This document shows, in pieces, positions 11,552 to 47,745 of a stretch of DNA of 64,000 nt. Made by a program: the position numbers and the translations under genes. This DNA comes from a virus, in the IMG/VR virus record IMGVR_UViG_3300050014_000899; one strand, 5' to 3'. Numbering within the stretch: the first letter of the stretch is position 1; each line of letters begins with the position of its first letter. The notes under the pieces were generated by a model. It saw only the letters and a list, made by a program, of their open reading frames with translations, was not told the DNA's origin and did no database searches.

Positions 11552-11552
11552 A

Positions 11553-27443: not shown

Positions 27444-27548
27444 ATGACAAGGCGTGCAAATATGGATAATTTCGTGGATTGGGGCTTTAATAGAGCAGCC
27501 AATAAAGACGGAGGTTATGGATGCCCGCTAAGGTGGAGAGGTATTTAA
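27444..27548 (+). CDS. attenuator leader peptide of tRNA operon 1 (MTRRANMDNFVDWGFNRAANKDGGYGCPLRWRGI)
   Basis: 34-codon ORF between promoter and terminator; codons 3-24 match downstream anticodons; contains antiterminator GGATGCCCGCT (27519-27529). Confidence 0.8.
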   Translation: MTRRANMDNFVDWGFNRAANKDGGYGCPLRWRGI

Positions 27549-27575
27549 CGAGGTAGTTAAAAAAATCTTTATATT

Positions 27576-27608
27576 AAGCGGGATCCCAACAGGTCCCGCT
27601 TTTCTTTT
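27576..27608 (+). terminator. attenuator terminator upstream of tRNA operon 1
   Basis: AAGCGGGATC-CCAACA-GGTCCCGCTT followed by TTCTTTT. Confidence 0.9.
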
Positions 27609-27675
27609 GATTAAAATTATGGAGCTTAAGCTAATCTAGTGAAAGCACTAACTCATCTAAATTTCTCTACTTTAT

Positions 27676-27762
27676 GGTCTCAGGAGCTGCTAGGCGTGGC
27701 TGCCGGACTGTCACTCCGGAACAGGTAAAACTGACAGGTGGGTTCGAATCCCATTGAGACCG
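27676..27762 (+). tRNA. tRNA-Asp(GTC) with long variable arm
   Basis: GGTCTCA/TGAGACC acceptor, CCGGA-CTGTCAC-TCCGG, TTCGAAT T-loop. Confidence 0.85.
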
Positions 27763-27817
27763 CAACAAATATGCTCGGTAAAGCCTCTTATGATAAATAA
27801 CGTAACTGAGTACTTAT

Positions 27818-27894
27818 AGGGGTGTAGTTCAAGTGGTAGAATAGTGGTCTCCAAAACCAAAGGTTTGCGGGTTCGAGTCCTGCCACCCCTGCCA
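27818..27894 (+). tRNA. tRNA-Trp(CCA)
   Basis: AGGGGTG/CACCCCT acceptor, loop CTCCAAA, encoded CCA. Confidence 0.93.
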
Positions 27895-27984
27895 GAGATT
27901 TAGTATATGTGAAGACTTGAAGGACTTTGGCCCTTGATTTTAGAGCTTACATACTTTCATGCCAATGAAGGAACTAAATCACAA

Positions 27985-28058
27985 GGGGAATTAGCTCAGT
28001 TGGCTAGAGCACCTGCCCTGCAAGCAGGGGGTCACGAGTTCGACTCTCGTATTCTCCA
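27985..28058 (+). tRNA. tRNA-Ala(TGC), C33 variant
   Basis: G3-U70; CCTGC-CCTGCAA-GCAGG. Confidence 0.92.
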
Positions 28059-28189
28059 CTCGAGGATGTTCGGCATCATTCAACTCATTCCAAGAAGGTG
28101 TCAAGTAACGAATGTCTAAGTTAAGTCACAGCGGCCGTACCTATAACGGTCAAAATTTCATGCTCGGGCTTTTTTCCGGTTCGTTACTT
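28059..28189 (+). ncRNA. structured RNA containing a 23S rRNA helix 69 mimic
   Basis: GCGGCCGTACCTATAACGGTC at 28131-28151. Confidence 0.65.
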
Positions 28190-28192
28190 TAT

Positions 28193-28265
28193 GCGCTTTT
28201 AGCTCAGATGGTAGAGTAGGTGCCTCTTAAGCATCGGGTCCAGGGTTCGATCCCCTGAAGGCGCA
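28193..28265 (+). tRNA. tRNA-Lys(CTT)
   Basis: Cloverleaf with loop CTCTTAA. Confidence 0.92.
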
Positions 28266-28350
28266 CAAATGAAAGTGAACGGCGCGTCTACCGTTTAATG
28301 ATTACCGACAAGTTGAAAAAGTCTTGGGCTATAACAGCTTTCATTTATTT

Positions 28351-28426
28351 GGGACGTAGGTCAAACGGTTAAGATGTCGGCCTGTCACGCCGTACGGAGC
28401 GGGTTCAACTCCCGTACGTCCCGCCA
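28351..28426 (+). tRNA. tRNA-Asp(GTC)
   Basis: Cloverleaf, loop CTGTCAC, G73-CCA. Confidence 0.93.
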
Positions 28427-28528
28427 ATATGTAGTAAGAAAAGGGTTACATCGGTTATGATTGGTTCGATTCCAATTTTACCCTGCGAAAGCTCGGGTGA
28501 ATTAAAGCTCTTTTCAATTTTCTCATAT
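28427..28528 (+). ncRNA. Y-RNA-like (YrlA-like) RNA with T-arm and closed acceptor cargo
   Basis: ATATG-TAGTAA..TTACATCG..ATTGG-TTCGATT-CCAAT..AATTTTCT-CATAT. Confidence 0.72.
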
Positions 28529-28534
28529 CGTTTT

Positions 28535-28608
28535 GTCGATAATAGTTTAATGGTAGAATATCCAGCGGTAAAACGAGGGAAGGAACCGGTTCGATTCCGG
28601 CTAAGACT
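28535..28608 (+). ncRNA. degenerate tRNA-like element
   Basis: D-arm and T-arm present; anticodon arm and acceptor are aberrant. Confidence 0.45.
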
Positions 28609-28611
28609 CCT

Positions 28612-28761
28612 GGGAGTATAGCTCAATGGTAGAGCAATTGGCTGTCTACAGACAGAAGTGTCTGAATAAAAACTTTAGGTGAAGTCTTATGAAGTTAAAG
28701 GAATCAAAATCCTCTTCATCTGCTAACCAATAGGTTCTGGGTTCGAGTCCCTGTGCCCCCG
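28612..28761 (+). tRNA. tRNA-Asn(GTT) interrupted by a 78-nt anticodon insertion
   Basis: ATTGG-CTGT[28646-28723]TAA-CCAAT; G73. Confidence 0.75.
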
Positions 28762-28828
28762 CTAATAACTAATAAGCAAAAAGATAAAAGTTCGAAACTT
28801 TTTCTGAATATATAGTAAAAGATATATT

Positions 28829-29548
28829 ATGAAGAGTTGCGAAAATTGTCAAAAAGAGCATGAAGGAACTTATGGTTCTGGAAGATTTTGTTCAGCTGAA
28901 TGTGCTAGGGGATTTAGCACAAAAGAAAAACGTTCTTTGATAAATGAAAAAATAAGCAAAAAAATGAAAGGATCGGGACATTCTGATATAAAAATAATTT
29001 GTCCTATATGCCAAACAGAATTTGAAGTTTCATGGAATAAAAGAAATCAAAAATTTTGTTCACGAAATTGTTCAATGAGATTTTCTAATTCTCAACCAGA
29101 AAATATAAAAAATTTATCTTTAAAAAGAATCAACAAAATACTTAAAGGACAAGTAAATGATTATGGTATAAAGATGATATATAAATTCAAAAATAAGGAT
29201 ATTAAATGCGATTCAAAAATAGAATTTGCTTGTTTAAATTTTTTTGAAACTAAAGAGGCATCAGAGATGGAAAGATGCAATCTAATTATTGAATATAAGG
29301 ATAAAGATAAAATAAGAAGATTTAATCCGGATTTTAAAATAAAAATAGATAATAATATTTATATTGTTGAAGTTAAGAGTTATATGAGTATTAAATCTAT
29401 AAATGAAAAATGGCGAAATTATAATGAATTATCTAAATTGAAAAAAGAAGCTTTAATAAATTTTTGTCAATTAAATAACTATATTCCCTTTTGGTTTACA
29501 AAAGATTTAAACAGAAATTTTTATAATAATGTTTCGGTCGTACTATAA
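28829..29548 (+). CDS. putative homing endonuclease (Zn fingers plus PD-(D/E)xK)
   Basis: CENC..GSGRFCS, FNPDF..IVEVKS; ATATATA promoter. Confidence 0.8.
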   Translation: MKSCENCQKEHEGTYGSGRFCSAECARGFSTKEKRSLINEKISKKMKGSGHSDIKIICPICQTEFEVSWNKRNQKFCSRNCSMRFSNSQPENIKNLSLKRINKILKGQVNDYGIKMIYKFKNKDIKCDSKIEFACLNFFETKEASEMERCNLIIEYKDKDKIRRFNPDFKIKIDNNIYIVEVKSYMSIKSINEKWRNYNELSKLKKEALINFCQLNNYIPFWFTKDLNRNFYNNVSVVL

Positions 29549-29606
29549 TTGGTCAGACTGCACTCTGTTAAAGTGAATAATGTAGGTTCGAATCCTACCC
29601 GAAACG
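29531..29606 (+). tRNA. tRNA-Asn(GTT), atypical D-arm
   Basis: GTTTCGG/CCGAAAC acceptor, CACT-CTGTTAA-AGTG, T-arm. Confidence 0.75.
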
Positions 29607-29680
29607 CCGCGCCGCCCAAAGGACGGATGCCCTGGTCACACAAAACCGTATTTGTGCAACTCACCTACGGGGTGAGTATT

Positions 29681-29917
29681 GCCCTGGTAGTTTAACTGGA
29701 GGAGGAACATGAAGTTATTAAATGCTCTCAACACTCAGCGCTGAGATGTTGGTCAAAGAGACATCAGACCTGATAAAAAAGTTAGGGAGGTGCAAAGGCA
29801 TTTATTAAAGAATGGTGGAATAGCTTGCCATCCAAATTTAATTTATGCTGGTAATAGACATTCCGAGAATTCTGGATTCGTTCAGAGGTGTGGGTTCGAT
29901 TCCCGCTGGGGGTTCCA
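29681..29917 (+). ncRNA. tRNA-like RNA with a ~165-nt structured insert replacing the anticodon loop
   Basis: GCCCTGG plus D-arm at the 5' end; TGAA/TTCA stem; T-arm plus TGGGGGT-T-CCA at the 3' end. Confidence 0.6.
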
Positions 29918-29925
29918 ATTTTAAA

Positions 29926-29998
29926 GTTCTTTTAGCTCAGTTGGAAGAGCGCTTCCGTGACATGGAAGAGGCCGTAGATTCGAGTTCTACAAGGAACA
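29926..29998 (+). tRNA. tRNA-Val(GAC)
   Basis: CTTCC-GTGACAT-GGAAG. Confidence 0.9.
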
Positions 29999-30003
29999 CA
30001 AAC

Positions 30004-30079
30004 AGCGACATAGCTCAGTGTGAGAGCGCTCCCGTTCATAGGGAGAGGTGCGGAGGTTCAATTCCTTCTGTCGCTACCA
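30004..30079 (+). tRNA. Met-scaffold tRNA with loop GTTCATA (formal anticodon TCA, or off-centre CAT)
   Basis: AGCGACA/TGTCGCT-A-CCA; CTCCC-GTTCATA-GGGAG. Confidence 0.65.
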
Positions 30080-30080
30080 A

Positions 30081-30182
30081 GGGAGTATAAGCTGTTAGAT
30101 GCATAAACAGCCATACGGGAGAACGGCGAATTTGGTGCTAAGACCATCATCCGCTGAGAGGGTTCGAATCCCTTTACTTCCA
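30081..30182 (+). ncRNA. tRNA-like RNA with expanded D and anticodon domains
   Basis: GGGAGTA/TACTTCC acceptor and a canonical T-arm. Confidence 0.55.
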
Positions 30183-30247
30183 CGAAATTCACTGTGAAGG
30201 TGAAATTTAATTTTCTTTCCAAAAGTTCGAACATAAGAAAGAAGATT

Positions 30248-30322
30248 TGCGATATAGAGCAGTGTTAGCTCGCTCCCGGGAAAAGGGAGAGGTCGGAGGT
30301 TCAATTCCTTCTGTCGCGACCA
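30248..30322 (+). tRNA. tRNA with GAA (Phe) anticodon on the same scaffold as 30004
   Basis: CTCCC-GGGAAAA-GGGAG; T-arm identical to 30004; CCA end. Confidence 0.65.
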
Positions 30323-30396
30323 GTTCCTTTAGCTCAGCTGGAAGTAGCGCCACCCCTACATGGTGGATGTCATAGGTTCGATCCCTATAAGGAACA
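30323..30396 (+). tRNA. tRNA-Val(TAC), C33 variant
   Basis: CCACC-CCTACAT-GGTGG. Confidence 0.85.
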
Positions 30397-30397
30397 C

Positions 30398-30537
30398 AAA
30401 CTGTAGTAAAACAGCGAGTTACTTCGTATTCCAAACGACTAGTCTAGGTGCAAATCCTGGGTCCCCTGCCAAAATTACTTAGGGGATTAGTGTAATAGAT
30501 AGCACAGTAAAAACACTCAAGTTAAATTTCTCAGTTT
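30398..30537 (+). ncRNA. Y-RNA-like RNA containing a circularly permuted tRNA-Trp
   Basis: Scaffold encloses the 3' half (TTCCAAA..T-arm..GTCCCCT-G-CCA) before the 5' half (AGGGGAT plus D-arm). Confidence 0.78.
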
Positions 30538-30539
30538 AC

Positions 30540-30641
30540 GGGAATGAAACTATTAGGGGGCGGAACCCTTTTATCCACAGTAGGAATAGTGATAAGGAAG
30601 CAGGCCGATCACCTGAGTGAGTTCGATTCTCACCATTTCCA
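30540..30641 (+). ncRNA. tRNA-like RNA (acceptor and T-arm, novel interior)
   Basis: GGGAATG/CATTTCC; GTGAG-TTCGATT-CTCAC. Confidence 0.55.
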
Positions 30642-30699
30642 CTAGTAGACCGTTATAATTTCATAGGACTCACATTGGAGAGTACAGCGTAGAAATTAA

Positions 30700-30773
30700 T
30701 GGGACACATGTTCCAAGGCAAGGCGAATGAGTTTTGCAAACTTGTTGGGAGGTTTCGATTACCTTTGTCTCCA
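30700..30773 (+). tRNA. atypical tRNA-Ala(TGC)
   Basis: G3-U70, loop TTTGCAA, U1/C72 mismatch, unusual D-arm. Confidence 0.7.
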
Positions 30774-30778
30774 CACAC

Positions 30779-30874
30779 TGCGGAAGAGTGAAACGGATAG
30801 AGATTTTAATTAATTTCGCTATCATCCAGGGCTCATAACCCTCGGGATATTGGGTTCGACTCCCATTTCCGCTA
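30779..30874 (+). tRNA. initiator-type tRNA-Met(CAT) with extended D-arm
   Basis: 1:72 mismatch, GGG/CCC anticodon stem, ~20 extra nt in the D-loop. Confidence 0.8.
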
Positions 30875-30880
30875 CTAAAA

Positions 30881-30984
30881 ACAAATGGCAGCACAACACC
30901 TAAAGGGACGCTTTTAAGGTAGTGGCCGAAGCATCGAAAATCAGAAATGACCTGCCGATGTAAAAAACGAATCCGGGCGTTTGT
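30881..30984 (+). ncRNA. unknown structured RNA
   Basis: ACAAATG/CGTTTGT closure, GCATCG/CGATGT helix, possible GGCAG/CTGCC pseudoknot. Confidence 0.45.
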
Positions 30985-30991
30985 TTTATAT

Positions 30992-31078
30992 GCCGTCGTG
31001 CCAGAGTGGCCAATCGGGGAGGGCTCATATCCCTTGGCTTTTATAGCCCCATAGGTTCGAATCCTATCGACGGTACCA
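30992..31078 (+). tRNA. class II (Leu-like body) tRNA with CAT anticodon
   Basis: GCCGTCG/CGACGGT-A-CCA, loop CTCATAT, variable arm GGCT-TTTAT-AGCC. Confidence 0.8.
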
Positions 31079-31094
31079 AATTTAATGTATAAAA

Positions 31095-31601
31095 ATGTAT
31101 TATACAATTTACAAAACTACGAATAAATTTAATGGCAAGTTTTATATCGGAAAGCATCAGACTCAGAAATTAAATGATAATTATTTAGGGTCTGGAAAAG
31201 CTTTGGAACTGGCTATTAAGAAATACGGTAAAGAGAATTTTCAAAAAAGAATTATTTTTGTTTTTGATAATGAAATTTTAATGAATCAAAAAGAAAAAGA
31301 AATTGTTACAGAGAATTTTATATCCAGCAATACAAATTATAATTGTGGGGTTGGGGGAGAAGGAGGAGCTCAATTCTTAAATAAATCTCACTCTGAAAAA
31401 ACTAAAAAATTGCTTGCTGAAAAAGCTAAATTAATAAAGCCCTCTAAAGAAACTAGAGATAAAATATCAGAGGGTAATAGAAAAAGAACATTATCTAAAG
31501 AAACAAGAAATAAACTCTCTCAAAAATCTTTCGAGAGATGGAAAAAATTGCGGGTTGGAGAAAATAGTCATCTCATTGGGCTCATAACCCAAGGTTGCTA
31601 G
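31095..31601 (+). CDS. GIY-YIG homing endonuclease (SegB-like)
   Basis: YTIYKTTN..FYIGKH, YLGSG, NUMOD3. Confidence 0.92.
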   Translation: MYYTIYKTTNKFNGKFYIGKHQTQKLNDNYLGSGKALELAIKKYGKENFQKRIIFVFDNEILMNQKEKEIVTENFISSNTNYNCGVGGEGGAQFLNKSHSEKTKKLLAEKAKLIKPSKETRDKISEGNRKRTLSKETRNKLSQKSFERWKKLRVGENSHLIGLITQGC

Positions 31602-31624
31602 GGCGGTACTAGTGCCCGCTACCA
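31549..31624 (+). tRNA. initiator-type tRNA-Met(CAT)
   Basis: TTGGG-CTCATAA-CCCAA, 1:72 mismatch, divergent T-loop, CCA. Confidence 0.8.
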
Positions 31625-31629
31625 ATTAA

Positions 31630-31741
31630 GCTGTAGTAACTGTAAGAATTACTTCGTTGAGTTCGATTCTCAATTTTCCCGCCAGATTTTAAAGGGAAAA
31701 TCGCCACAAAGGGTGGCATTATTCTTCTAATTTTTCTCAGC
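31630..31741 (+). ncRNA. Y-RNA-like (YrlA-like) RNA with T-arm, acceptor and D-like cargo
   Basis: GCTG-TAGTAA..TTACTTCG-TTGAG-TTCGATT-CTCAA-TTTTCCC..GGGAAAA..ATTTTTCT-CAGC. Confidence 0.75.
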
Positions 31742-31797
31742 GAAAATACATGCCGGATGACCCCCGTTGTATCACGGTGCCGGCTCCAATAAGGTCA

Positions 31798-31870
31798 GAT
31801 CTCGTAGCTCAGTTGGTAGAGCACATCCCTTTTAAGGATGGGGTCCTGGGTTCGAGCCCCAGCGGGATCA
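31798..31870 (+). tRNA. tRNA-Lys(TTT)
   Basis: Canonical cloverleaf, loop CTTTTAA. Confidence 0.95.
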
Positions 31871-31871
31871 C

Positions 31872-31977
31872 AATCGTAGTAATGGAAAGAGTTACTTCGT
31901 GCTAATGGTTAGCAAAATCCTGTTAAGATTACTTCGCGGTTCAATTCCGCCTGTTACCTCTTCCGATTTTCTCGATT
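31872..31977 (+). ncRNA. Y-RNA-like RNA carrying D, anticodon (GTT) and T arms
   Basis: AATCG-TAGTAA..TTACTTCG, D-arm, AATC-CTGTTAA-GATT, T-arm..GATTTTCT-CGATT. Confidence 0.72.
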
Positions 31978-31980
31978 ATG

Positions 31981-32054
31981 GGAGCTTAGCTCAGTTGGTT
32001 CAGAGCATCTGCCTTACAAGCAGAGGGTCGAGGGTTCGAATCCCCCAGTTCCCA
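31981..32054 (+). tRNA. tRNA-Val(TAC)
   Basis: Canonical, loop CTTACAA. Confidence 0.95.
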
Positions 32055-32143
32055 CATAACGTATAAAATAATATACGTTAACTAAGAAAAAGGGACTTAA
32101 TGTATAATATTTTATCCGTTATGACCCGATAATATCCGATAAT

Positions 32144-32216
32144 GGTCCGGTAGCTCAATGGATAGAGCACCTGCCTTCTAAGCAGGTGGTTGAGAGTTCG
32201 AGTCTCTCCCGGATCA
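32144..32216 (+). tRNA. tRNA-Arg(TCT)
   Basis: Canonical, loop CTTCTAA. Confidence 0.95.
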
Positions 32217-32223
32217 CTAATTT

Positions 32224-32298
32224 GGTCTCATAGTACAACGGATAGTGCGCGAGTTTCCTAAACTTGAAATCCGGGTTCGATTCCCAGTGAGATCACCA
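32224..32298 (+). tRNA. tRNA-Arg(CCT)
   Basis: Loop TTCCTAA, CCA end. Confidence 0.92.
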
Positions 32299-32579
32299 AA
32301 TAATTTATAAACATGACTCATACTCTTAAGCAAATTGTTAAGGGTAATACTGCTCGCTTTTCATATGCATGCGAAGGGAAGCTCTATTACACTATTGAAG
32401 TAGAAGAATCAGTATATCAAGTAGAATTGGACAGTACCGCCGATGAATGGAGGGCAACATATATGACCCCAACTTTTCCTGCCATCACTCTTATGAGATG
32501 GATCAGAAAAGGTATGGAAAATGAAAAATTTATTCAGATAAAGTAGACAACTTTAGGATATTTTTCGTATATTTGTCCC

Positions 32580-33011
32580 ATGGTAATTCACGAAATATTG
32601 AAGGAACATGGGATTTTTAGTAATGACATAAAAGTCAAAATTAAAAATGGCCAGATTAAATTAAATGGAGAAGTTGTTACGGATCCTTTAATGGATTTGG
32701 ATATTGAATTCGTGAAGAAGGAGGACCGGCCTACCAAAGAAACCCCTGCATTTGAAGATGCTGGAAATTTTCTTTTCAGAGCAATTAGTAAAGACAAAGA
32801 ATGTTTTGACTTATGTACAGCTATGGGGGTTGATGGATTGGGTATTCATCCAGAATTTTGGCCAGATTTGAATTTTACCAACAAACTAGTTGAAAAATTT
32901 AGAAAGGTTTATGTCTTAAAGATTTCTAAAAAAGAATGGATCATACTCCAGAAAAAAGAAGTTGAAATTGAAACGGAAGAATTTTTAATATTGAAGAAAA
33001 ATGATTGTTAA
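32580..33011 (+). CDS. hypothetical protein with N-terminal S4-like RNA-binding motif
   Basis: LKEHGIFS..IKNGQIKLNGEVVTDP. Confidence 0.55.
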   Translation: MVIHEILKEHGIFSNDIKVKIKNGQIKLNGEVVTDPLMDLDIEFVKKEDRPTKETPAFEDAGNFLFRAISKDKECFDLCTAMGVDGLGIHPEFWPDLNFTNKLVEKFRKVYVLKISKKEWIILQKKEVEIETEEFLILKKNDC

Positions 33012-33230
33012 AAAAAGAACTGATAAGATTGAAGTTGACCTGACAGGTCCGCATGGAAATGCTTATGCTCTTTTAGGATTAGCAAGTGATATTTGCAAGA
33101 ATTTAAATCGTCTTGCAGGAAAAGAATTATATGACTTCAAAGAAATTGAAAAAGATATGAAGAGTTCTGATTATGAACATCTTTTGGAAGTTTTGGAAGA
33201 ACACTTTGGTAACTTTATAATATTATACAG

Positions 33231-33638
33231 ATGAGATTTGCAAATGATCCAGCGGAGCCAACAACTCCCACGAACCCGAAATTATCTTCGATAGCTTATA
33301 CATTGTCAAAATTGACTGTATTGGAAGCTAAAGAATTAGCTGATATACTTGAAAACGATTTTGGTATCAAGAAAGCTAAAACAGAGTTTAAACCTGCAGG
33401 ATATGAACCTGTTCCTGAAGTGGAACAAACTGAATTCAATGTTTACCTCAAAGAAATTGGCAATCAAAAATTGCAGGTTATAAAAAAGGTCCATGAAGTA
33501 ATGGGATTGGGTCTTAAAGAAGCCAAAGCATTGGTTGATTCTACCCCCTGTCTTTTAAAAGAAAAGATTTTAAAAGCTGAAGTAACAACCATAAAAGCCG
33601 AATTGGAAAATGTCGGAGCAGTAGTGGAAGTGAGATGA
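33231..33638 (+). CDS. rplL: ribosomal protein L7/L12
   Basis: LTVLEAKELADILE, EQTEFNV, KLQVIK..GLGLKEAKALVD. Confidence 0.93.
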   Translation: MRFANDPAEPTTPTNPKLSSIAYTLSKLTVLEAKELADILENDFGIKKAKTEFKPAGYEPVPEVEQTEFNVYLKEIGNQKLQVIKKVHEVMGLGLKEAKALVDSTPCLLKEKILKAEVTTIKAELENVGAVVEVR

Positions 33639-34313
33639 AATTAAAGAACCTCATATTAGCATTAAAAGATCAAGGTCCGCTTAAAAGAGCTTTTCGAAAC
33701 TTCTTTATAACTGGAAATGCATGGGGTTTATTTTCCATAAACTCTCACATAAGGCAGGATACTCAAAAGCCAAAGGTGACTTATAATACTCAAGAAACAG
33801 CTGCTAAATCAGCTATCAGTTTGGGTAAGAAAAATGGGGTTCACTTTAGCTATTACAAATGTGCTTACTGTGATGGTTATCATATCGGTAAGAATAGAGA
33901 CAATAAAACAAATGAAAAATAGAGCAAAAGGTTTTTATTGGGTTCAATATGCAAATTTATCTTGGGTAGTTTGCGAATGGGATGGTGTCCAATGGCATCA
34001 CCAAGGGGCAAGTTATCCGGATGAAAGTTTTAAACAGATTCATGAGATAAGAATTGAGCCTCCAAAACCCAAAGATGTTAGAAATTCCGATGGTATATGG
34101 ACTCCAGAATGTTTAATTTTTTAAAATGAGAATAATAATCACAGCTGAAGAAGCAATCGATAAAGGAATCTGGGAAGATTTATGCGACATGGTCGGATAC
34201 AGTTATTATGCAGTTAACGAAGGTATGGACCCTGATACAGAAATTTCTTTAACAGAGGATCAAGCAAGACAGCTGGGAGTAATACCTGCAAAAAATAGTA
34301 TTTCCTGGGACTA

Positions 34314-34948
34314 ATGAAAGCATATCACACAATACAGAAATATACCGAGGATCACTATGGAAAGTTTGTATGGGCTTTCGATAAGGTAGATGGATCTAAT
34401 TTCAGGTAGAGTGGGATAGAAAACTTTCAAAGAAAAGCCAGTTTACATTTGGATTCAAAAAATTCGGGACAAGAACCGAAATGATAATGAACAACAGAAA
34501 TCCATTTATTGAAGCTGTTACTTTGTTTGAAATGGAATATGCTCCAAAATTTGACCAGATTTTTAAAGACGCAAAAGAGCTAAGAGGAGTTCCGATAATT
34601 ACCTTATTTGGAGAGTTTTATGGTCCAGGTAGCTTTGCAGGTATGCACGATTGGAACGCTACCCATAGTTTAACATTTTTCGATGCGGCAATATATAAGA
34701 AGGGATACCTTCCTCCATCAGATTTTCAAAATCTATTTGGAGAACTCCCCATACAAAAACTTATTTGGAAAGGAATTTTCAATGAGGAATTTGTAAAAAG
34801 AGTAGAAGCCAATGAATTCGGACTTTCCGAAGGAATAGTTTACAAGGGCGTTGAAGACGGAGATGTCTTTATGGGCAAAATCAAAACTCTTCAATGGCTC
34901 GAAAGTATAAGAAATAAGTACGGTATCAAAAAAATGCTAGAGTACTAA
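34314..34948 (+). pseudogene. Rnl2-like RNA ligase with a 1-nt frameshift near 34406
   Basis: Motif I DKVDGSNFR then TAG; the other frame continues with FGEFYG, FFD, EGIVYK and KIK motifs. Confidence 0.75.
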
Positions 34949-35135
34949 TGGAAGATTTCAAAAAGAAGCGAAAAGATCTTCGCGATCGAAAAAGAGAAGC
35001 AATGAACGAGGAATATAAATCCGCCAAAGAAAGAAAAGGGGTTGTTAACACATTTAAAAGAGAATCCAGATCCATTAAGAGATCTGAGAAAAATGAAATA
35101 AAGAAAGTTCTTCGGAACGATTTTGGAATTTAAAC

Positions 35136-35211
35136 GCGCCGGTATCACGCCTCGCTACGAACGAGGAGAAGTGTAATTGGACACATGAGGGTTCGAATCC
35201 CTTTCGGCGTT
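35136..35211 (+). tRNA. non-canonical tRNA-Arg(ACG) with D-loop relocated 3' of the anticodon arm
   Basis: 7-nt linker, CCTCG-CTACGAA-CGAGG, then AGAAGTGTAATTGGACACAT and a T-arm. Confidence 0.75.
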
Positions 35212-35215
35212 CTAA

Positions 35216-35375
35216 TGGGTAAAGTGTTATACGGTCTGAAGCCCGGGTTTGGGAAATGAATCATCAGAGTACCTCAGGTCTATAAAATAACACAAGAGGG
35301 GAATCTTTTCAGATGATCAATCCTTCAAAGACGCTGAATTTATCCAGGTGGGAAGGGTTCGCCCGATTCTCACCA
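35216..35375 (+). ncRNA. unknown structured RNA
   Basis: TGGGTAAA/TTTATCCA closure, GTGTTAT/ATAACAC pseudoknot, terminal hairpin ending in CCA. Confidence 0.5.
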
Positions 35376-35379
35376 AATT

Positions 35380-35451
35380 GCGGAGGTAGTATAACGGTTA
35401 GTATAGGGCCTTGCCAAGGCTCAGATGGGTTTTCGATTAACCTTCTCCGCA
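35380..35451 (+). tRNA. tRNA-Gly(GCC)
   Basis: GGGCC-TTGCCAA-GGCTC; GCGGAG acceptor. Confidence 0.88.
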
Positions 35452-35503
35452 CAAAGTAGCAAAATTGGTAGAGCGCATGTGAATATATATAGAAAATATT
35501 CGC

Positions 35504-36310
35504 ATGCTACCAAGAAATAAAAAAAATTGTGAAAAATGCAATAAAGAAATAAGTTTGTCTAATTTTAATTTGCATTATTCTTCATGTAAAGGAAATATAG
35601 AAGAAACAAAGATAAGAGTAAAAGAAGAATGGAAATTGGTCAACGGAAAATACAAATGTCCATATTGTAATAAAGAGTATTCGAAGAATGGAATTTCTAC
35701 ACATATTATAAGAAATCATACCGAAAAAGGAAAAGGGCAAAATCCCAATATTGGTTTTTTAAAGGAAACCCAAATTATTTGGAATAAGGGGTTATCAAAG
35801 GAAACAAATAAAAGTCTTGAAAATCTTTCAAAAACATTATTAAAAAAATATAAATCTGGAGAATTAAAATCCGGATTTAAAAATAAAAAACATAATAAAA
35901 TATCATGTGAAAAAATGTCTAAAAGTGCTATTCTAGCATTTCAAGAAGGAAGACATTCTGGATGGGTTTCAAGAAAAATACAAAGTTATCCTGAGATATA
36001 TTTTGAAAAGGTTTTAAAAAGCAAAAAGTTATTTGAAGAATGTATCCCTGAATATTTTATTAAACATAAAAACAATTCTAATTATTTTTTGGATTTTTAT
36101 TTTCCAAATAAAAGGATTAATTTAGAAATTGATGGCTCTCAACATGAATTGGAAGATCGAAAAATATCTGATAATCAAAGAGATAATTTTTTATCAGAAC
36201 AAAATATATTTGTTTTTAGAATAAAATGGAGAAACCCAAAATCATTAGATGGTAAAAAATATTTGGAGAATAAAATAAAAGAATTTATTGAATTATACAA
36301 GCGGAAGTAG
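35504..36310 (+). CDS. putative homing endonuclease (Zn finger plus DUF559/Vsr-like)
   Basis: CPYC..H..H, SYPE, YFLDF..LEIDGSQH..RD. Confidence 0.85.
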   Translation: MLPRNKKNCEKCNKEISLSNFNLHYSSCKGNIEETKIRVKEEWKLVNGKYKCPYCNKEYSKNGISTHIIRNHTEKGKGQNPNIGFLKETQIIWNKGLSKETNKSLENLSKTLLKKYKSGELKSGFKNKKHNKISCEKMSKSAILAFQEGRHSGWVSRKIQSYPEIYFEKVLKSKKLFEECIPEYFIKHKNNSNYFLDFYFPNKRINLEIDGSQHELEDRKISDNQRDNFLSEQNIFVFRIKWRNPKSLDGKKYLENKIKEFIELYKRK

Positions 36311-36373
36311 CTCAGTTGGTAGAGCACCGTCCTTCCACGTCGGGGGTCGCGAGTTCGAACCTCGTCTTCCGCT
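36301..36373 (+). tRNA. tRNA-Gly(TCC)
   Basis: GCGGAAG/CTTCCGC-T, loop CTTCCAC. Confidence 0.93.
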
Positions 36374-36380
36374 CAATTTT

Positions 36381-36452
36381 GCCTCTATGGTGTAATGGAT
36401 AACATGGGTGACTTCGGATCATCTGTTACGGGTTCGAATCCTGTTAGGGGCA
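36381..36452 (+). tRNA. tRNA-Arg(TCG)
   Basis: GGTGA-CTTCGGA-TCATC. Confidence 0.9.
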
Positions 36453-37464
36453 CAACTTTTTTAAACTAAAATAATGAATTATACAAATTATATTTTAAGC
36501 GGAAACTCTATCAATATCAATTCTCTCATCTCCAAAAAAAGATACTTAAAACCAATAACTATTACAATTGCTATTCCAGTAGCTATAGTAGGATTTCTAG
36601 CATTTTCGGGAATATTACCAGCAACCTATATAATAGATCGTGTTAAAGAAGGAGAAATTAAATATCTTAAAGTTATAAGAAAATATAAAAGAAACAAAGA
36701 GTTTCAAGCTTTTTTAGAAACCATTTCAGATGATAAAGAAGAAATGAAAAGAATCAAAAAAATGTATCATTAATCATGAAAAAATTATTCGATGGTCATT
36801 AGGTAAGAAAGTTACCTAAAATAAGACCATTATGAGAAGAAGACATTATTTGAAAACGACTCAAATACTTGAGCACACCACAAATCGTAGAGAATTTAAA
36901 ATTCTTACCACCGTTGATCAAGATCCATATCCTGAAGAGTATGGGTATTACCAAAAGCACAAATGGGGATTCAGAGGATGCAGAAAGTCCAGATTAATCT
37001 GGAAACATCAAGTAAGAATGTATCGTACTTGGAAGCATAATAGAAAAACCCAGTATAAATATAATAAAAACGATGGATATATCCACAATAACGAAGGAAC
37101 AATTTGATTTAGCTTATAATAAGTTTCAACCAAATGCTTGGGTCAAATTTGGATTTAAGTACTTTTCTAATAGTACTTTAAAAGAAAATTTCAAAATAAA
37201 GAAAACTGTAACTTGGATTCTCGGTGTTCTTTTTGGAATTGGTTTTTTAGCAACTGTAATTGGATTACCGCACAATGTAATTGCAGTTCCTGTTCTAATA
37301 TATTCAGGAATTATTGTTATTTTAGCTATTATTATGGGGGGATCCGCTCTAATGAATAATCTGAGAATTAAAAAAATTCAGAAAGAATTAGGAGTAAACA
37401 TTTGGCAATATGAAGCTTTAGTAAATATGTTTTATCCAACCCCTATCAACCCACTTCAAAATTA

Positions 37465-38052
37465 ATGAATAAATTGAGTCCTTTTCTTCAATACAAGGAC
37501 ATCCTTGAGAAATATTTGTCTCCTAAAACCATTTTTAAATTAAAGGAGGCTTGGAATGAACCCAGAAGAAGGTATCATAATGAAGATCACTTATATCAGA
37601 TTTTAAAAGATCTCGAAAAAAGTAAATCAAAAGTATCTTCAGTTCAATGGGAATCTTTAGTAATAGCCGCTTTCTTTCACGATGCTATTTATGTTCCGGG
37701 GAATTCCAATAACGAGGATCAGTCCATTAAAGTTTTCTTAGAGTCTTTTTTAGGAAAAAGATTTGATATGGTTAAAGCTATTAAAGAAATGATCAAAGCA
37801 ACTCAATTTAGAGTGGTTCCAGCGGATAAACTAGTTAAGATTTTTTGGGAAGCAGATAATGCAGGATTCCAGGGACCATTTGAAAGTTTTTTAGAAACCG
37901 AGAAGAAGATTAGATTAGAGTTTGGACATGTTTCTTTGCATACTTATAAGAAAGGAAGACTAAAGTTTCTCAATTCCTGTTTAGGATTAATGGGGCCAAA
38001 AGCAGACGAAAACGTCTCAAAACTAATCGAGTACATAGAAAAAAATTACTAA
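37465..38052 (+). CDS. HD-superfamily metal-dependent phosphohydrolase
   Basis: RRYHNEDH, AAFFHDAIY..NEDQS, EAD. Confidence 0.85.
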   Translation: MNKLSPFLQYKDILEKYLSPKTIFKLKEAWNEPRRRYHNEDHLYQILKDLEKSKSKVSSVQWESLVIAAFFHDAIYVPGNSNNEDQSIKVFLESFLGKRFDMVKAIKEMIKATQFRVVPADKLVKIFWEADNAGFQGPFESFLETEKKIRLEFGHVSLHTYKKGRLKFLNSCLGLMGPKADENVSKLIEYIEKNY

Positions 38053-38589
38053 TTTTAACGTTTTTTCTTCAAAAATATTTTTTTTCTAAGTAAAATAATT
38101 GTACATTTACTATGAAATTAAAAATAAGAGATATGAGAACCACAGGCGTTATCGAATTCGAAGGATTTAAATTCAAAAATACAGAATTTCAATTTAAGAA
38201 CAAGAAAGAGATGAACAGCTTTTTTAATGAGGTTCTTATTGATAGTCCTCAGAGATTCATTAATACTTTGGATCGTTGGAATTTGGAAAATATGCACATT
38301 GCGTTTTCACAATTTATGCTGATGAAAGTTATTGCTTTTTCAGGTCTTGGAATGGGATTAGTATCAATACTTGCAAAGCTTCCGTCAATTGTTGGAATTG
38401 GTTTCGTAGTAATGGCAGCAGTTAATTATATTGCAAGCAAAAAAGCCGAAAAAAGACTTGATAACATCAACTACAGCAGAGGAGATTATGAAATGATGGC
38501 TGAAGGACTTGATGAAGTTCGTGAAGATTTAATAAAAGAAAAAAATTCAAAGTAATACAAAACCTAAGCATTTTTACGTATATAAGATA

Positions 38590-38600
38590 GATATATAAAG
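38590..38600 (+). promoter_or_regulatory. putative phage (late-type) promoter for tRNA operon 2
   Basis: GATATATAAAG. Confidence 0.55.
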
Positions 38601-38621
38601 AAACAACAAAAAGTTAAAACA

Positions 38622-38699
38622 ATGAAAAGGCAGTCCATACATACGATTAGTATTACCTCATCACACGATAAGGGCGGCCTTTTTATGACTAGACTTTAG
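38622..38699 (+). CDS. attenuator leader peptide of tRNA operon 2 (MKRQSIHTISITSSHDKGGLFMTRL)
   Basis: Codons 5-15 are all Ser/Ile/His/Thr and match the operon; alternative 1:2, 2:3 and 3:4 pairings. Confidence 0.87.
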   Translation: MKRQSIHTISITSSHDKGGLFMTRL

Positions 38700-38724
38700 T
38701 ACTAAGATATTAAATGATTTATTC

Positions 38725-38757
38725 AAAGGAAGGCTCCAATCAGTCTTCCTTTTTTTT
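38725..38757 (+). terminator. attenuator terminator upstream of tRNA operon 2
   Basis: AAAGGAAGGCT-CCAATC-AGTCTTCCTTT followed by T-tract. Confidence 0.9.
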
Positions 38758-38762
38758 GTTTT

Positions 38763-38848
38763 GGAGAGTAGCATTCGATGGTGGATAACAGGTCTCGAAA
38801 ACCTGGCCGGCGGTTCAAATCCCAAGGGTTCGACTCCTTTACCCTCCG
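38763..38848 (+). tRNA. tRNA-Ser(CGA)
   Basis: Loop CTCGAAA, long variable arm, G73. Confidence 0.85.
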
Positions 38849-38864
38849 CTAGAAAATAAAATAT

Positions 38865-38954
38865 GGATGGGTACCCAAATTGGTTAAGGGGGCGGTCTTG
38901 AAAACCGTTAGGTCGTGTAAACACGGCGCGTGGGTTCGAACCCCACCTCATCCG
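38865..38954 (+). tRNA. tRNA-Ser(TGA)
   Basis: Loop CTTGAAA, long variable arm. Confidence 0.93.
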
Positions 38955-38957
38955 CAA

Positions 38958-39027
38958 GGGGCGAAACCAACTTCGCAAGTTGGATCTGGATTTAGCTACC
39001 AGATAAGCATATGTGTGATGCTGTCCC
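38958..39027 (+). ncRNA. four-way cloverleaf RNA without tRNA consensus motifs
   Basis: GGGGCG/TGTCCC closing three hairpins. Confidence 0.5.
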
Positions 39028-39033
39028 GGTTAT

Positions 39034-39110
39034 GGTGGTATTAGTGTTAGTGGTAAGCACGAAAGTCTGTGGAACTTTTAGGATGGGTTCGAATCCCATA
39101 TAACACCCCA
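39034..39110 (+). tRNA. tRNA-His(GTG), encoded G-1
   Basis: Loop CTGTGGA, C73, CCA. Confidence 0.92.
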
Positions 39111-39114
39111 TTAT

Positions 39115-39194
39115 GGTAGACGTAGCTTAATTGGTTAAAGGGCCAGATTGTGGATCTGATGCGATTGAGGGTTCGAATCCCTTCGTCTACCCCA
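39115..39194 (+). tRNA. tRNA-His(GTG), second copy, encoded G-1
   Basis: Loop TTGTGGA, C73, CCA. Confidence 0.9.
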
Positions 39195-39195
39195 C

Positions 39196-39268
39196 GCCTC
39201 TATAGTATAGTTGGTAATTATAGCTGATTCGTAATCAGCAGACTGGGATTCGAATTCCCGTAGAGGCT
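39196..39268 (+). tRNA. tRNA-Thr(CGT)
   Basis: GCTGA-TTCGTAA-TCAGC. Confidence 0.9.
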
Positions 39269-39275
39269 CAATAAT

Positions 39276-39349
39276 GCACCCTTAGCTCAGCTGGTAGAGC
39301 ACTTGCTTGGTAAGCAAGAGGTTCCCGGATTCGATCTCCGGAGGGTGCT
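39276..39349 (+). tRNA. tRNA-Thr(GGT)
   Basis: CTTGC-TTGGTAA-GCAAG. Confidence 0.92.
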
Positions 39350-39430
39350 CAAAAGCATACGTGTATGCGACAATAGTGAAGAGTGGTAATACACCCCGCC
39401 GTTAACTTGAGGAGGTCAGGCACTATTTTT

Positions 39431-39515
39431 GGAGGGTTGACCGAGAGGTAAGGTATCGCTCTGGAAAGGCGAAGTCAGGGTTAAACTTGGGTGGGATCGT
39501 TACCCGCATCCTCCG
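39431..39515 (+). tRNA. tRNA-Ser(GGA)
   Basis: Loop CTGGAAA, long variable arm, G73. Confidence 0.87.
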
Positions 39516-39522
39516 CAAAAAT

Positions 39523-39595
39523 ACTGGTGTGGCGCAATGGTAAGCGCAGGACCCTTATAAGGTCAAGGTTGGGGGTTCAAGTCCCTTCACCAGTA
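39523..39595 (+). tRNA. tRNA-Ile(TAT)
   Basis: Loop CTTATAA, A73. Confidence 0.88.
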
Positions 39596-39602
39596 CAAAT
39601 TT

Positions 39603-39679
39603 CGGCCTGTATACCCTCTGTCTGATAAACAGTTGAAAGGTTAGCTGGTTGCATAGTGGTTCGACTCCACTCAGGCCGA
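39603..39679 (+). tRNA. non-canonical tRNA-Ile(GAT) with relocated D-loop
   Basis: CGGCCTG/CAGGCCG, 7-nt linker, CTGT-CTGATAA-ACAG; same architecture as 35136. Confidence 0.75.
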
Positions 39680-39685
39680 CAAAAT

Positions 39686-39758
39686 GGGCGTATCATATAG
39701 TTGGTTAGTATACGTGCCTGATAAGCACGACACGGAGGTTCGAGGCTTCCTATGCCCA
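39686..39758 (+). tRNA. tRNA-Ile(GAT)
   Basis: CGTGC-CTGATAA-GCACG. Confidence 0.9.
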
Positions 39759-39833
39759 CAAATTCTAGAGGGTTAAGAAATGGGGATAGCAATCTAGCCT
39801 GCATTTTTACGGATATATATAATAAATAATATT

Positions 39834-40580
39834 ATGTATAAGTGTAATCATTGCGATAAAGAATTTGAATTAAAACAACAAAAAACTAATCATGAAAGAT
39901 GGCATGCCAATCCTAAACACAATGAGATTAAAAAAGAATATTGTTGTTCGATATGTGGAAAAACATTTACAAATTTTGGATGGAAACAAATTCATGAAAA
40001 ATATTGTGATGGATCAGGATTAACTAAAAAAGAAAAAATTCTTAAAAACAGAGAAAATAATAAAGGCAAAACTTTTGATGAAATTTTAGTTCAAAAAGGA
40101 ACTTATGAAAAGTTTTGTCAAAATGTATCTTTTGGAATGAAAGAAGCTTTTAAAGAAGGCAAATTTACCGGATCCCCATCTACAGAAGAAGGCAAAAAAA
40201 GAAAAAATGAAAAATTAAGACAGAGTACATTAAAAAGATACAAGGAGGGGTGGGATTCAAAATGTGGAAGAGCTCCTAAATATCATTACGAAAGCAAGAT
40301 AGCAGGAAAAATAACTGTTGATGGGTCATGGGAATTAAATGTAGCCAAATATTTAGATAACAATAATTTTAGATGGATTAGAAATACAAAAAGATTTGAT
40401 TATGTTAATTTAGAAGGAAAACAATCAACATATAAACCGGATTTTTATATTTTTAATTGGAGTAGTTATTTAGAAATAAAAGGATTTGAAACAAAACTGG
40501 ATAAATGTAAATGGGAGCAATTTAAAGAACCCCTAATAATATGGAAAAGAAATGATTTAAAAGAATTAAAAATAATTTAA
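39834..40580 (+). CDS. putative homing endonuclease (C2H2 fingers plus PD-(D/E)xK)
   Basis: CNHC..HERWH, GSWE, YKPDF..LEIKG. Confidence 0.82.
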   Translation: MYKCNHCDKEFELKQQKTNHERWHANPKHNEIKKEYCCSICGKTFTNFGWKQIHEKYCDGSGLTKKEKILKNRENNKGKTFDEILVQKGTYEKFCQNVSFGMKEAFKEGKFTGSPSTEEGKKRKNEKLRQSTLKRYKEGWDSKCGRAPKYHYESKIAGKITVDGSWELNVAKYLDNNNFRWIRNTKRFDYVNLEGKQSTYKPDFYIFNWSSYLEIKGFETKLDKCKWEQFKEPLIIWKRNDLKELKII

Positions 40581-40582
40581 AA

Positions 40583-40669
40583 GGAGAGTAAACCGGAAAG
40601 GTTTGCCGGAACCGCCTGCTAAGCGTGTTGAGCGTTAATTCGCTTGGTTTTCGAATATCCTGCTCTCCG
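40583..40669 (+). tRNA. tRNA-Ser(GCT)
   Basis: Loop CTGCTAA, long variable arm, G73. Confidence 0.82.
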
Positions 40670-40675
40670 CTCATG

Positions 40676-40744: not shown

Positions 40745-41128
40745 ATGAACTTTGAAAGACATCAGGATCCTTTAACCTCAATGAATATTGGGATTACTAC
40801 TTGGGATAAACTGCAGCAAGGTCAAGTCCTAAAAACTAAAAGAAGCGTAAAGCTTACCGAAATCCCTGGGGGAGCATGGAAAATAAAAGCTGATGGTAGT
40901 GTGTTGGATAATTCTATTGGTAAAGATATGTTCTGCCATCTTATTCGTGTAAACCACGTTAGGGTAAAAGACGGAAAAACAAAAATTTTACAAATTGTAT
41001 TTGCTGAATATTTATGGTTAGACAGTATAGCTAAAGATACTAAACAATTTACAGCTACAAAAACTTTAATTGGAAATATTGATCAGATCAAAAGTAGATT
41101 TGAAATTATTCAAAGAGTAAAAATATGA
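40745..41128 (+). CDS. hypothetical protein, FxR..DP..xIG family
   Basis: MNFERHQDPLTSMNIG. Confidence 0.65.
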   Translation: MNFERHQDPLTSMNIGITTWDKLQQGQVLKTKRSVKLTEIPGGAWKIKADGSVLDNSIGKDMFCHLIRVNHVRVKDGKTKILQIVFAEYLWLDSIAKDTKQFTATKTLIGNIDQIKSRFEIIQRVKI

Positions 41129-41910
41129 AAAATCATTTTGTCCGAGGGGGAAATGTCATTAAGAAATTAGGTATAGGAAGATCCATTCTTGATGAACTCA
41201 TGGAACATAAGGTTGCTAGACCTATGAATGATCCTCGTGAAAAGCTGGAGGGAGATGAAAAATACAGTCAGAATATTGCTGTTTGGATAAATCCTAGTAA
41301 TCAAACCTGTTTTAATGCTATGTGGTGTGACTATCAGAATCTGGAGGATTGGATGAACGGAAAAGGACCGATGGTTAAAGGGGATACAGATGAGGAAAAG
41401 AAAAAATATTGGGATTATGCTGTAGCTGAAGCAGAAGACACGGAACATATGATGTGGTCCATTTTATATCATTGGAAATGGTTTGACCAGTTTACAACAG
41501 ATTTTGATCCTCATAAACATGCAGCTTCTTTTGGAATAAGTAACGTTATAAAAAATCCTCTTAAGCTTAACAAGAAAGACCCCTCGGAAACTATAAAAGC
41601 TATGTATGCTCCGTATGTGGATGAAATGGCCAGAGATATGGAATATAGGGACTGGGGTAACATTAGAAGAGAAGCTGAAAAAGAATGGTATGGGATTAAA
41701 AGAACCCTTTATTGTTTAGGAATTGGTTATATGGGAGCTTGCAATACCCCAGAGGAGATTGAAAATCTTAATTGGATTGAAGGTATTGTTCTATCTAAAG
41801 CATATTATAATGGATTGATTAAATATTCCCCCCATAAATCTCTTCCTGATTTTGCATGGCTTTCCCAAAAAGAGCAAGATAAATACAAGAAAGATAAGAT
41901 GGATTTATGA
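41125..41910 (+). CDS. hypothetical protein, FxR..xIG family
   Basis: MKNHFVRGGNVIKKLGIG. Confidence 0.65.
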   Translation: MKNHFVRGGNVIKKLGIGRSILDELMEHKVARPMNDPREKLEGDEKYSQNIAVWINPSNQTCFNAMWCDYQNLEDWMNGKGPMVKGDTDEEKKKYWDYAVAEAEDTEHMMWSILYHWKWFDQFTTDFDPHKHAASFGISNVIKNPLKLNKKDPSETIKAMYAPYVDEMARDMEYRDWGNIRREAEKEWYGIKRTLYCLGIGYMGACNTPEEIENLNWIEGIVLSKAYYNGLIKYSPHKSLPDFAWLSQKEQDKYKKDKMDL

Positions 41911-47435: not shown

Positions 47436-47633
47436 TACAGAGAATTCGTCGCACTACGGTGAGAAACTTCAGTCCATCACAGCTGAAAGCGGGAGATCTA
47501 ACTAATCGTTAATACCGCTGAGAGATGCAACTTAAACAGACTTAGACTAAAAGCTGATCAATGATAGTCGGGTTAAGGCCAATAGACAAATGACGAAATA
47601 AAGCAAAAGACTGGGTACGCTCATATCAATATT
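47428..47633 (+). ncRNA. rnpB: compact RNase P-like RNA
   Basis: P1 ATATTGATA/TATCAATAT; P2 TTCGTCG/TGACGAA; P3; P4 GAGAA-ACTTCAGTC with CAAAA-GACTGGGT-AC (bulged U); CR-IV-like TAGACAAATG. Confidence 0.75.
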
Positions 47634-47637: not shown

Positions 47638-47745
47638 GGTTTCGTAGCTTAGGGGCAGAGTACTGGCGGAACATGCGGGGAGCGAGAGATCGTCCGTAAT
47701 GACCTAGAGGCATACGGGGCGGAGGTTCGATTCCTTCCGAGACCA
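47638..47745 (+). ncRNA. tRNA-like RNA with enlarged anticodon domain
   Basis: GGTTTCG/CGAGACC, D-arm, T-arm, ~50-nt structured insert. Confidence 0.6.

Follow-up and report, generated by a model that had tools for sequence, protein, structure and literature searches.

The virus record IMGVR_UViG_3300050014_000899 of the IMG/VR database contains a stretch of 64,000 nucleotides (referred to below as the window) from the ~300-kb genome of an uncultured phage, whose host is probably a member of the Bacteroidota. This phage carries ~45 tRNA genes in three co-oriented arrays, and each array is headed by a short open reading frame (ORF) and an intrinsic terminator that together resemble a leader-peptide attenuator. 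Arrays 1 and 2 lie in the window, where ARAGORN finds 26 tRNA genes between 27676 and 39759, every one of them on the + strand. Rfam supports most of these calls; in addition, it detects an interrupted tRNA (28612-28761) and weak tRNA-like genes (35136 and 47638). Between the tRNA genes of array 1 lie small ORFs, one of which encodes a homolog of the ribosomal protein bL12, as well as Y-RNA-like modules and homing-endonuclease genes. Array 2 starts with genes for Ser CGA, Ser UGA, His GUG (two copies), Thr CGU, Thr GGU, and Ser GGA, followed by Ile UAU, a non-canonical Ile GAU, another Ile GAU, a homing-endonuclease gene, and a low-scoring Ser GCU.

An earlier note on this DNA, made from the window sequence alone, had assigned ten amino acids to array 1 and four to array 2, with none in common. 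The ARAGORN calls bear out the lack of overlap (zero amino acids shared), but the tenth amino acid, Asn, comes only from interrupted or degenerate genes, namely the tRNA at 28612-28762 and an Asn-like gene at 29534-29603 that is sub-threshold at 25 bits. The former has an insert of 78-81 nt in the anticodon loop, and its anticodon is GUU, GCU, or GUC depending on the junction chosen; joining CUGU to UAA yields GUU, and ARAGORN reads GCU. This insert is below the size of a group I intron, and a diverged counterpart in the related scaffold BUCK21-1 (L022:3369-3520), located at the equal position of its array, is likewise interrupted. The earlier note had also found no anticodons for Leu, Glu, Gln, Pro, Tyr, or Cys in the window, and none appeared here, even with the intron and low-score settings of ARAGORN. 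These six amino acids were expected to be served by one or more further clusters elsewhere, each behind a leader rich in them.

Such a cluster, array 3, was found ~21 to 14 kb upstream of the window, in the same orientation. Two runs, SRR35911552 and SRR35915826, yielded Logan contigs with 100% identity to the window. The extension outward from the window relied on exact matches of proteins; in a close relative, tRNAs for Pro, Leu, Tyr, and Glu were first seen upstream of the region that corresponds to the window. The array of the phage itself lies on a 13.3-kb contig from SRR35911552 (L010), which was reached through a variant protein specific to the contig assembled by the JGI. L010 encodes proteins that are also found on that 152,742-bp JGI contig, which carries the window's own proteins. 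Exact-pattern scans for array 3 gave no match in the viral and metagenome contig collections, and a scan of viral contigs with the protein encoded at 41125-41910 detected no relative. On L010, the array consists of Cys GCA, Thr UGU, Gln UUG, Pro UGG, Gln CUG, Pro CGG, Leu UAG, Leu UAA, Pro UGG, Pro GGG, Tyr GUA, Glu UUC, Leu GAG, and Glu CUC, and thus includes all six of the missing amino acids. Eleven of the array 3 calls are also detected by Rfam, and the close relative has an additional Glu UUC in its version of the array. One further call on L010, an 86-nt "Phe GAA," is doubtful, with a poor fold and Y-RNA-like motifs in its sequence. The tRNA census, and with it the count of three arrays, refers to the window and L010 within the ~300-kb genome. 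The union of the three arrays comprises all 20 amino acids.

Each array is preceded by a short ORF (Table 1) that contains a cluster of candidate regulatory codons, referred to here as a block. The block of leader 1 (residues 3 to 24, RRANMDNFVDWGFNRAANKDGG) is drawn solely from the ten amino acids of array 1, that of leader 2 (residues 5 to 15, SIHTISITSSH) consists only of Ser, Ile, His, and Thr, and that of leader 3, FLSYQPLTLTLTQEEQLPC, is composed of array 3 amino acids only, with all of them (C, T, Q, P, L, Y, and E) present. Just as the earlier note had it, L, E, Q, P, Y, and C are absent from blocks 1 and 2 (22 and 11 residues); the tails outside the blocks do hold some of them (Y, C, P, and L in leader 1, Q and L in leader 2). 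The uninterrupted runs of residues from the set of the own array, and of that array only, are 22, 11, and 19 residues long in leaders 1, 2, and 3, respectively, with P values of ~2e-6, ~5e-7, and ~1e-6 against the amino-acid usage of the phage, which makes each leader the top outlier among 643 short ORFs on both strands. Residues matching the own array account for 27/33, 12/24, and 23/31 of the three peptides. The 3x3 matrix of leaders against arrays is dominated by its diagonal, each off-diagonal value being below the own-array value, so that the set of every array matches its own leader and not the others. In addition, each block contains all amino acids of its array (joint P ~0.014). The signal in the leaders is robust at the amino-acid level. 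Codon-level matching was set aside as evidence, as the match was not above expectation, although the blocks sample a mild excess of distinct anticodons (33 versus 28.7 expected, P = 0.02).

All three leaders are separated from their tRNA genes by an intrinsic terminator with a T-tract. Among the terminator-like sites on the + strand between 26000 and 42000, the two behind leaders 1 and 2 are the top two, terminator 1 ranking best. The T-tract of terminator 2 abuts the first tRNA gene of the array (Ser, 38763), which leaves no room for a separate promoter and makes array 2 reachable by read-through only. Leader 3 and its terminator span 159 nt from the start of the ORF to the end of the terminator. 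For the missing part of the code, the earlier note had predicted a leader rich in L, E, Q, P, Y, and C, to be looked for as a short ORF plus terminator; the 32-codon ORF and the hairpin of -18.1 kcal/mol with a T-tract fit this description. The remaining tRNAs could also have been scattered or have lacked a matching leader; on L010, they are clustered and have one.

The upstream segment that pairs best with the 5' arm of the terminator is found 1-3 codons past the block in all three leaders. The duplex of candidate antiterminator 1 has a predicted energy of -16.3 kcal/mol, compared to a shuffle mean of -8.2, and none of 400 shuffled sequences did as well (P < 0.0025). For candidate antiterminator 3, the duplex energy is -13.0 kcal/mol versus -18.1 for the terminator (shuffle P = 0.0025), and for the weaker candidate antiterminator 2, it is -10.7 kcal/mol versus a shuffle mean of -7.1 (P = 0.04). 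When the footprint of a ribosome at codons 5-13 of leader 1 is masked, the predicted minimum free energy (MFE) structure shifts to the antiterminator; masking the block of leader 3 has the same effect in early or nascent states. Once the ribosome sits on the stop codon or where the block ends, the terminator is predicted to form.

Table 1. Leaders, tRNA arrays, and neighboring features of the phage genome (coordinates refer to the window unless preceded by L010)
Feature	Coordinates	Strand	Description
Leader ORF 1	27444..27548	+	34 codons; reads MTRRANMDNFVDWGFNRAANKDGGYGCPLRWRGI
Candidate antiterminator 1	27519..27529	+	GGATGCCCGCT; pairs with the 5' arm of terminator 1
Intrinsic terminator 1	27576..27610	+	10-bp stem with 6 G-C pairs, T-tract; hairpin 27576-27601, -15.8 kcal/mol
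tRNA array 1	27676..36453	+	Asp, Trp, Ala, Lys, (Asn), Val, UCA, Phe, Met, Arg, Gly
Leader ORF 2	38622..38699	+	25 codons; reads MKRQSIHTISITSSHDKGGLFMTRL
Candidate antiterminator 2 (weaker)	38672..38684	+	GGCGGCCTTTTT; partner is the ORF start ATGAAAAGGC or the 5' arm of terminator 2
Intrinsic terminator 2	38725..38762	+	11-bp stem, T-tract; hairpin 38725-38752, -12.9 kcal/mol
tRNA array 2	38763..40670	+	ARAGORN group within the array: 38763-39759
Leader ORF 3	L010:4650-4748		32 codons; reads MKNFLSYQPLTLTLTQEEQLPCGLAKEEIVIF, beginning MKNFLSYQPLTLTLTQEEQLPCGL
Terminator 3	L010:4777-4817 (including T-tract)		Hairpin 4777-4806, -18.1 kcal/mol
Y-RNA-like modules	30405-30475, 31628-31690, 31873-31975; L010 ~6008-6345, 8948-9033		
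Homing-endonuclease-like ORFs	28829-29548, 31095-31601, 35504-36310, 39834-40580; L010:5357-5959		
Metabolic and receptor genes (TonB-dependent-receptor-like, nicotinate phosphoribosyltransferase, lysine-2,3-aminomutase-like, patatin-like)	11472-13520, 7734-8912, 22652-23821, 59139-60176		

Among the close relatives of this phage (WOOD18-1 scaffold_335 and several ENA contigs), the leader 2 and leader 3 regions of k141_47100, k141_287561, and SRR7151659 are 100% identical to those described here and therefore hold no covariation information. The BUCK21-1 scaffold is more diverged. Its leader 1 reads MIKRANMDNFVDWGFNRAANKDGGYGYSLEDIIDW, in which the block is conserved, with a single in-set change of R to K, and the flanks, the tail, and the terminator arm have diverged. 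Despite this sequence change, an equivalent of antiterminator 1 is retained as a 12-bp pairing. The nearest database phages, judged by the major capsid protein, are the Lak megaphages (47% identity) and LR756500.1 (41%). In LR756500.1, a short ORF and a terminator are found 90-140 nt before each of three tRNA arrays, with the amino-acid sets {A,L,P,Y,Q,G,T}, {N,D,R,M}, and {H,E,V,W,L}; in an unbiased run-of-set scan, these leader ORFs had P values of 4e-6 to 1e-4 among 117 ORFs. There is also an M/K/F-rich leader-like ORF before {K,M,F} in this phage and, in Lak-A1, a G/M/H/P/C/R-rich one located 80 nt before {H,P,R,G,C,M}; for both of these, the analysis covered the ORF. Altogether, four leader-like ORFs of LR756500.1 and one of Lak-A1 match their own arrays. 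A strict terminator finder overlooked terminators that are plainly visible in LR756500.1 and was set aside. In T5, which served as a negative control, no upstream short ORF fits the downstream tRNAs (best P of 6e-3, among 52-91 ORFs). Judging from these genome sequences, leader composition tracks array content across phages, and the grouping of the amino acids varies.

These observations make it likely that the phage has three leader-peptide attenuators, each heading its own, nearly disjoint array of tRNA genes. We infer that the leaders are translated and control read-through; the quantity that they sense could be the abundance, the integrity, or the charging of tRNAs. The block of each short ORF carries every amino acid of its array and no others. 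Under this scheme, when the matching charged tRNAs are scarce, the block would be decoded slowly, the antiterminator would form, and RNA polymerase would enter the array; when decoding is fast, the ribosome would cover the antiterminator segment, the terminator would form, and transcription would stop. As the tRNAs under control would read the codons of their own leader, every array would be subject to a negative-feedback loop, and the sorting of isotypes would keep these loops independent, one for each part of the genetic code. A further suggestion, which we put forward only tentatively, is that several such closed and independent loops, each opening its array only if the ribosome reports slow decoding of exactly the codons of that array, let the phage detect and selectively offset the loss of particular host tRNAs, which might result from the action of host anticodon nucleases or from tRNA depletion during infection.

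The sorting of isotypes into arrays is not random. When isotypes were permuted freely between arrays 1 and 2, zero sharing was seen in 0.03-0.05% of the shuffles (P = 3-5e-4), and for the three arrays, in which Thr is the only amino acid shared among the confident calls, P was < 5e-6. Such sorting could also be a by-product of local duplication followed by anticodon change, with the leaders, real attenuators in this case as well, adapting to whatever lies downstream and with no selection for the division of the code itself. Several facts fit this explanation: isoacceptors are often adjacent (Ser-Ser, His-His, Thr-Thr, Ile-Ile, and Arg-Arg), and once adjacent genes of the same isotype are permuted as units, the separation of arrays 1 and 2 has a P value of only 0.05. 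Anticodon change can be seen in a pair of tRNA orthologs with 97% identity, one of which is Val UAC in the window (30323-30397) and the other Ala UGC in BUCK21-1 (L022:5527-5601), a switch that stays inside the amino-acid set of array 1. Furthermore, the amino acids are grouped differently in LR756500.1, Lak-A1, and the phage studied here. However, the unit-preserving test on all three arrays still gives P = 2e-4, and the front of the array in BUCK21-1 contains Phe, Lys, Gly, and Asp genes that have no close homolog in the window and all fall within set 1, which suggests a constraint on set membership in addition to shared descent. We regard a mere by-product as the less likely explanation.

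The proposal of three attenuators has to be weighed against a number of observations that speak against it in whole or in part. Array 1 spans 9 kb and contains many protein-coding ORFs, which makes control of its distal Gly and Arg tRNAs by a single attenuator no more than a hypothesis. Candidate antiterminator 2 is weak, and the MFE folds of leader 2 retain the terminator. Arrays 2 and 3 both include Thr, though not the same anticodons for it, which means that the partition holds by anticodon and not strictly by amino acid; the earlier idea of a code divided among separately attenuated operons stands as far as the near-disjointness of the arrays is concerned, with Thr split and with attenuation as its predicted part. 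The tRNA gene interrupted at 28612 may encode Ser GCU rather than Asn, and array 3 includes a doubtful, atypical 72-nt "Ser CGA" in which neither U33 nor a long variable arm is present. For a given amino-acid sequence, the codons chosen in the leaders agree with the anticodons only to the degree expected (P 0.4-0.5), since almost every codon for the amino acids of an array is read by that array. The large array of Lak-A1 has no clear leader. Finally, no RNA run was listed with the window stretch, and three peat metatranscriptomes contained next to none of the sampled words.

Array 3 deserves separate consideration in this respect. Leader 3 is located ~1.1 kb before the first tRNA gene of the array, with a 108-amino-acid ORF and a homing-endonuclease gene in between, and a TATATTTG box past terminator 3 (L010:4861-4868) matches the -7 promoter box of Bacteroidota, which means that the array may have an independent promoter. 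Another alternative concerns what the leaders sense. A stalled ribosome is blind to the difference between a missing and an uncharged tRNA, and the architecture is that of the classical attenuators. The leaders might report amino-acid starvation through uncharged tRNA rather than the abundance or integrity of tRNAs, in which case their connection with tRNA genes would be part of a general response to stress. An extra tRNA would give no relief from amino-acid starvation, though, and the one-to-one match between block and tRNA set, seen in five leader-array pairs from three phages, would be purposeful only with feedback from the product; this alternative appears improbable. About equally hard to accept is the possibility that leader 3 and terminator 3 govern the 108-amino-acid ORF only and that array 3 is transcribed from other promoters. 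It draws on the gap and the promoter-like box just described and on a weak hairpin at L010:5248-5283, but block 3 holds all amino acids of array 3 in a 19-residue run with P ~1e-6, and the intervening homing-endonuclease gene is a mobile insertion. Chance, with untranslated ORFs, hairpins that end upstream protein operons, and constitutive arrays, would agree with the lack of a listed RNA run but is very hard to reconcile with three independent outliers at ~1e-6, their recurrence with other amino-acid sets in LR756500.1 and Lak-A1 and not in T5, the conservation of block 1 between diverging flanks, and a terminator that abuts the first tRNA of array 2.

Apart from the interrupted tRNA, the arrays include several unusual genes. 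The non-canonical tRNA-like genes at 27676, 35136, 39603, and 40583 (27676-27763, 35136-35211, 39603-39679, and 40583-40670) have no normal D-arm or T-arm, and their scores are close to the calling thresholds or lower. They carry the anticodons GUC, ACG, GAU, and GCU, the last three being low-scoring calls of Arg, Ile, and Ser, respectively, and such genes provide readers for the leader codons CGT and AGT. Two paralogous tRNA genes, at 30004-30079 and 30248-30322, have an encoded CCA end and unusual anticodon loops, GUUCAUA (with UCA, of the opal-suppressor type) and GGGAAAA (without U33); their ortholog in BUCK21-1 (L022:5212-5286) has the loop GCUUGAA, which indicates rapid loop change. The tRNA-like gene at 47638-47745 (37.5 bits in Rfam) has a 47-nt insert in place of the anticodon arm; in the stretch just before it (47429-47632), Rfam shows no hit to RNase P RNA. 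A tRNA of the amber-suppressor type, with the anticodon CUA, is encoded upstream in a close relative (L004:5347-5419). Stop-codon recoding by UCA and CUA tRNAs was considered and rejected for the window, where TAA, TGA, and TAG all terminate long ORFs.

The Y-RNA-like modules between the tRNA genes are recognized by TAGTAA and TTACTTCG motifs and by weak hits to the Rfam family YrlA; a TROVE/Ro60-like gene is found ~8-9 kb upstream of the window, and L002:1-1327 is a further locus of this group of features. The bL12 (L7/L12) homolog inside array 1 (33231-33638) is identified by Pfam with E = 6.9e-23. The homing-endonuclease-like ORFs are of the PD-(D/E)XK, GIY-YIG/NUMOD3, DUF559, and zinc-finger types, and their presence varies among close relatives. 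Elsewhere, the window encodes a TonB-dependent-receptor-like protein, nicotinate phosphoribosyltransferase, a radical SAM protein similar to lysine-2,3-aminomutase, and a patatin-like phospholipase, and genes for NAD synthase and isochorismatase are located nearby.

The usual view of phage tRNA genes is that they are constitutively expressed cargo, which tunes codon usage or makes up for host tRNAs that have been damaged. If three attenuators indeed operate here, they would be the first case of regulatory logic to be reported for the tRNA genes of phages and would account for the sorting of isotypes into blocks; on the more tentative reading given above, the loops would act as a sensor at the level of translation and a countermeasure at the same time, enabled by the sorting of the code among arrays. 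The leader/array pattern could also be used as an annotation rule for unannotated genomes of huge phages. A full-text literature search retrieved no account of leader-peptide control of tRNA genes, nor of leaders in LR756500.1 or Lak phages. These phages, whose genomes are published, share with the phage described here its lineage, a large complement of tRNAs, and the design of the leaders, but they group the amino acids differently and carry a CUA suppressor tRNA, and their records are unannotated. The tRNA clusters of T5 and other large phages similarly contain homing endonucleases, small ORFs, and stable tRNA-like RNAs between the tRNA genes; in T5, however, the isotypes are unsorted and there is no matching short ORF upstream.

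Among known regulatory systems, the T-box riboswitches likewise read the status of tRNA and convert it into transcriptional read-through into translation-related genes, but they do so by direct binding of the uncharged tRNA, with no leader ORF involved. Neither the T-box family (RF00230) nor other cis-regulatory Rfam families were detected in the window, where tRNAs gave the only hits at the gathering threshold. The leader-peptide attenuator of Escherichia coli pheST senses a single amino acid and controls phenylalanyl-tRNA synthetase. It resembles the units described here in that a component of translation that serves the sensed codon is subject to leader-peptide attenuation; in the phage, tRNA genes would be the ones controlled, several amino acids would be sensed by each leader, and the units are parallel and partitioned. 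Multivalent leaders are found in the enterobacterial attenuators of ilvGMEDA (Ile/Leu/Val) and thr (Thr/Ile), which belong with those of trp, his, leu, and pheA; to our knowledge, no such attenuators have been described in Bacteroidota. The phage leaders are similar to those of the ilvGMEDA and thr type in having an ORF with candidate regulatory codons and a terminator; the candidate antiterminators located after these codons would correspond to the 1:2, 2:3, and 3:4 pairing scheme. They differ from them in that the predicted targets are phage tRNAs and not biosynthetic enzymes, up to ten amino acids are covered by one leader, and the code is divided among several units. The genes controlled by a classical attenuator make or charge the sensed amino acid, and those downstream of the phage leaders are tRNA genes. 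The phage system would thus work like a member of the leader-peptide attenuator family, outside the known target range of that family, and would extend this type of regulation to a new class of targets and to huge phages of the Bacteroidota type.

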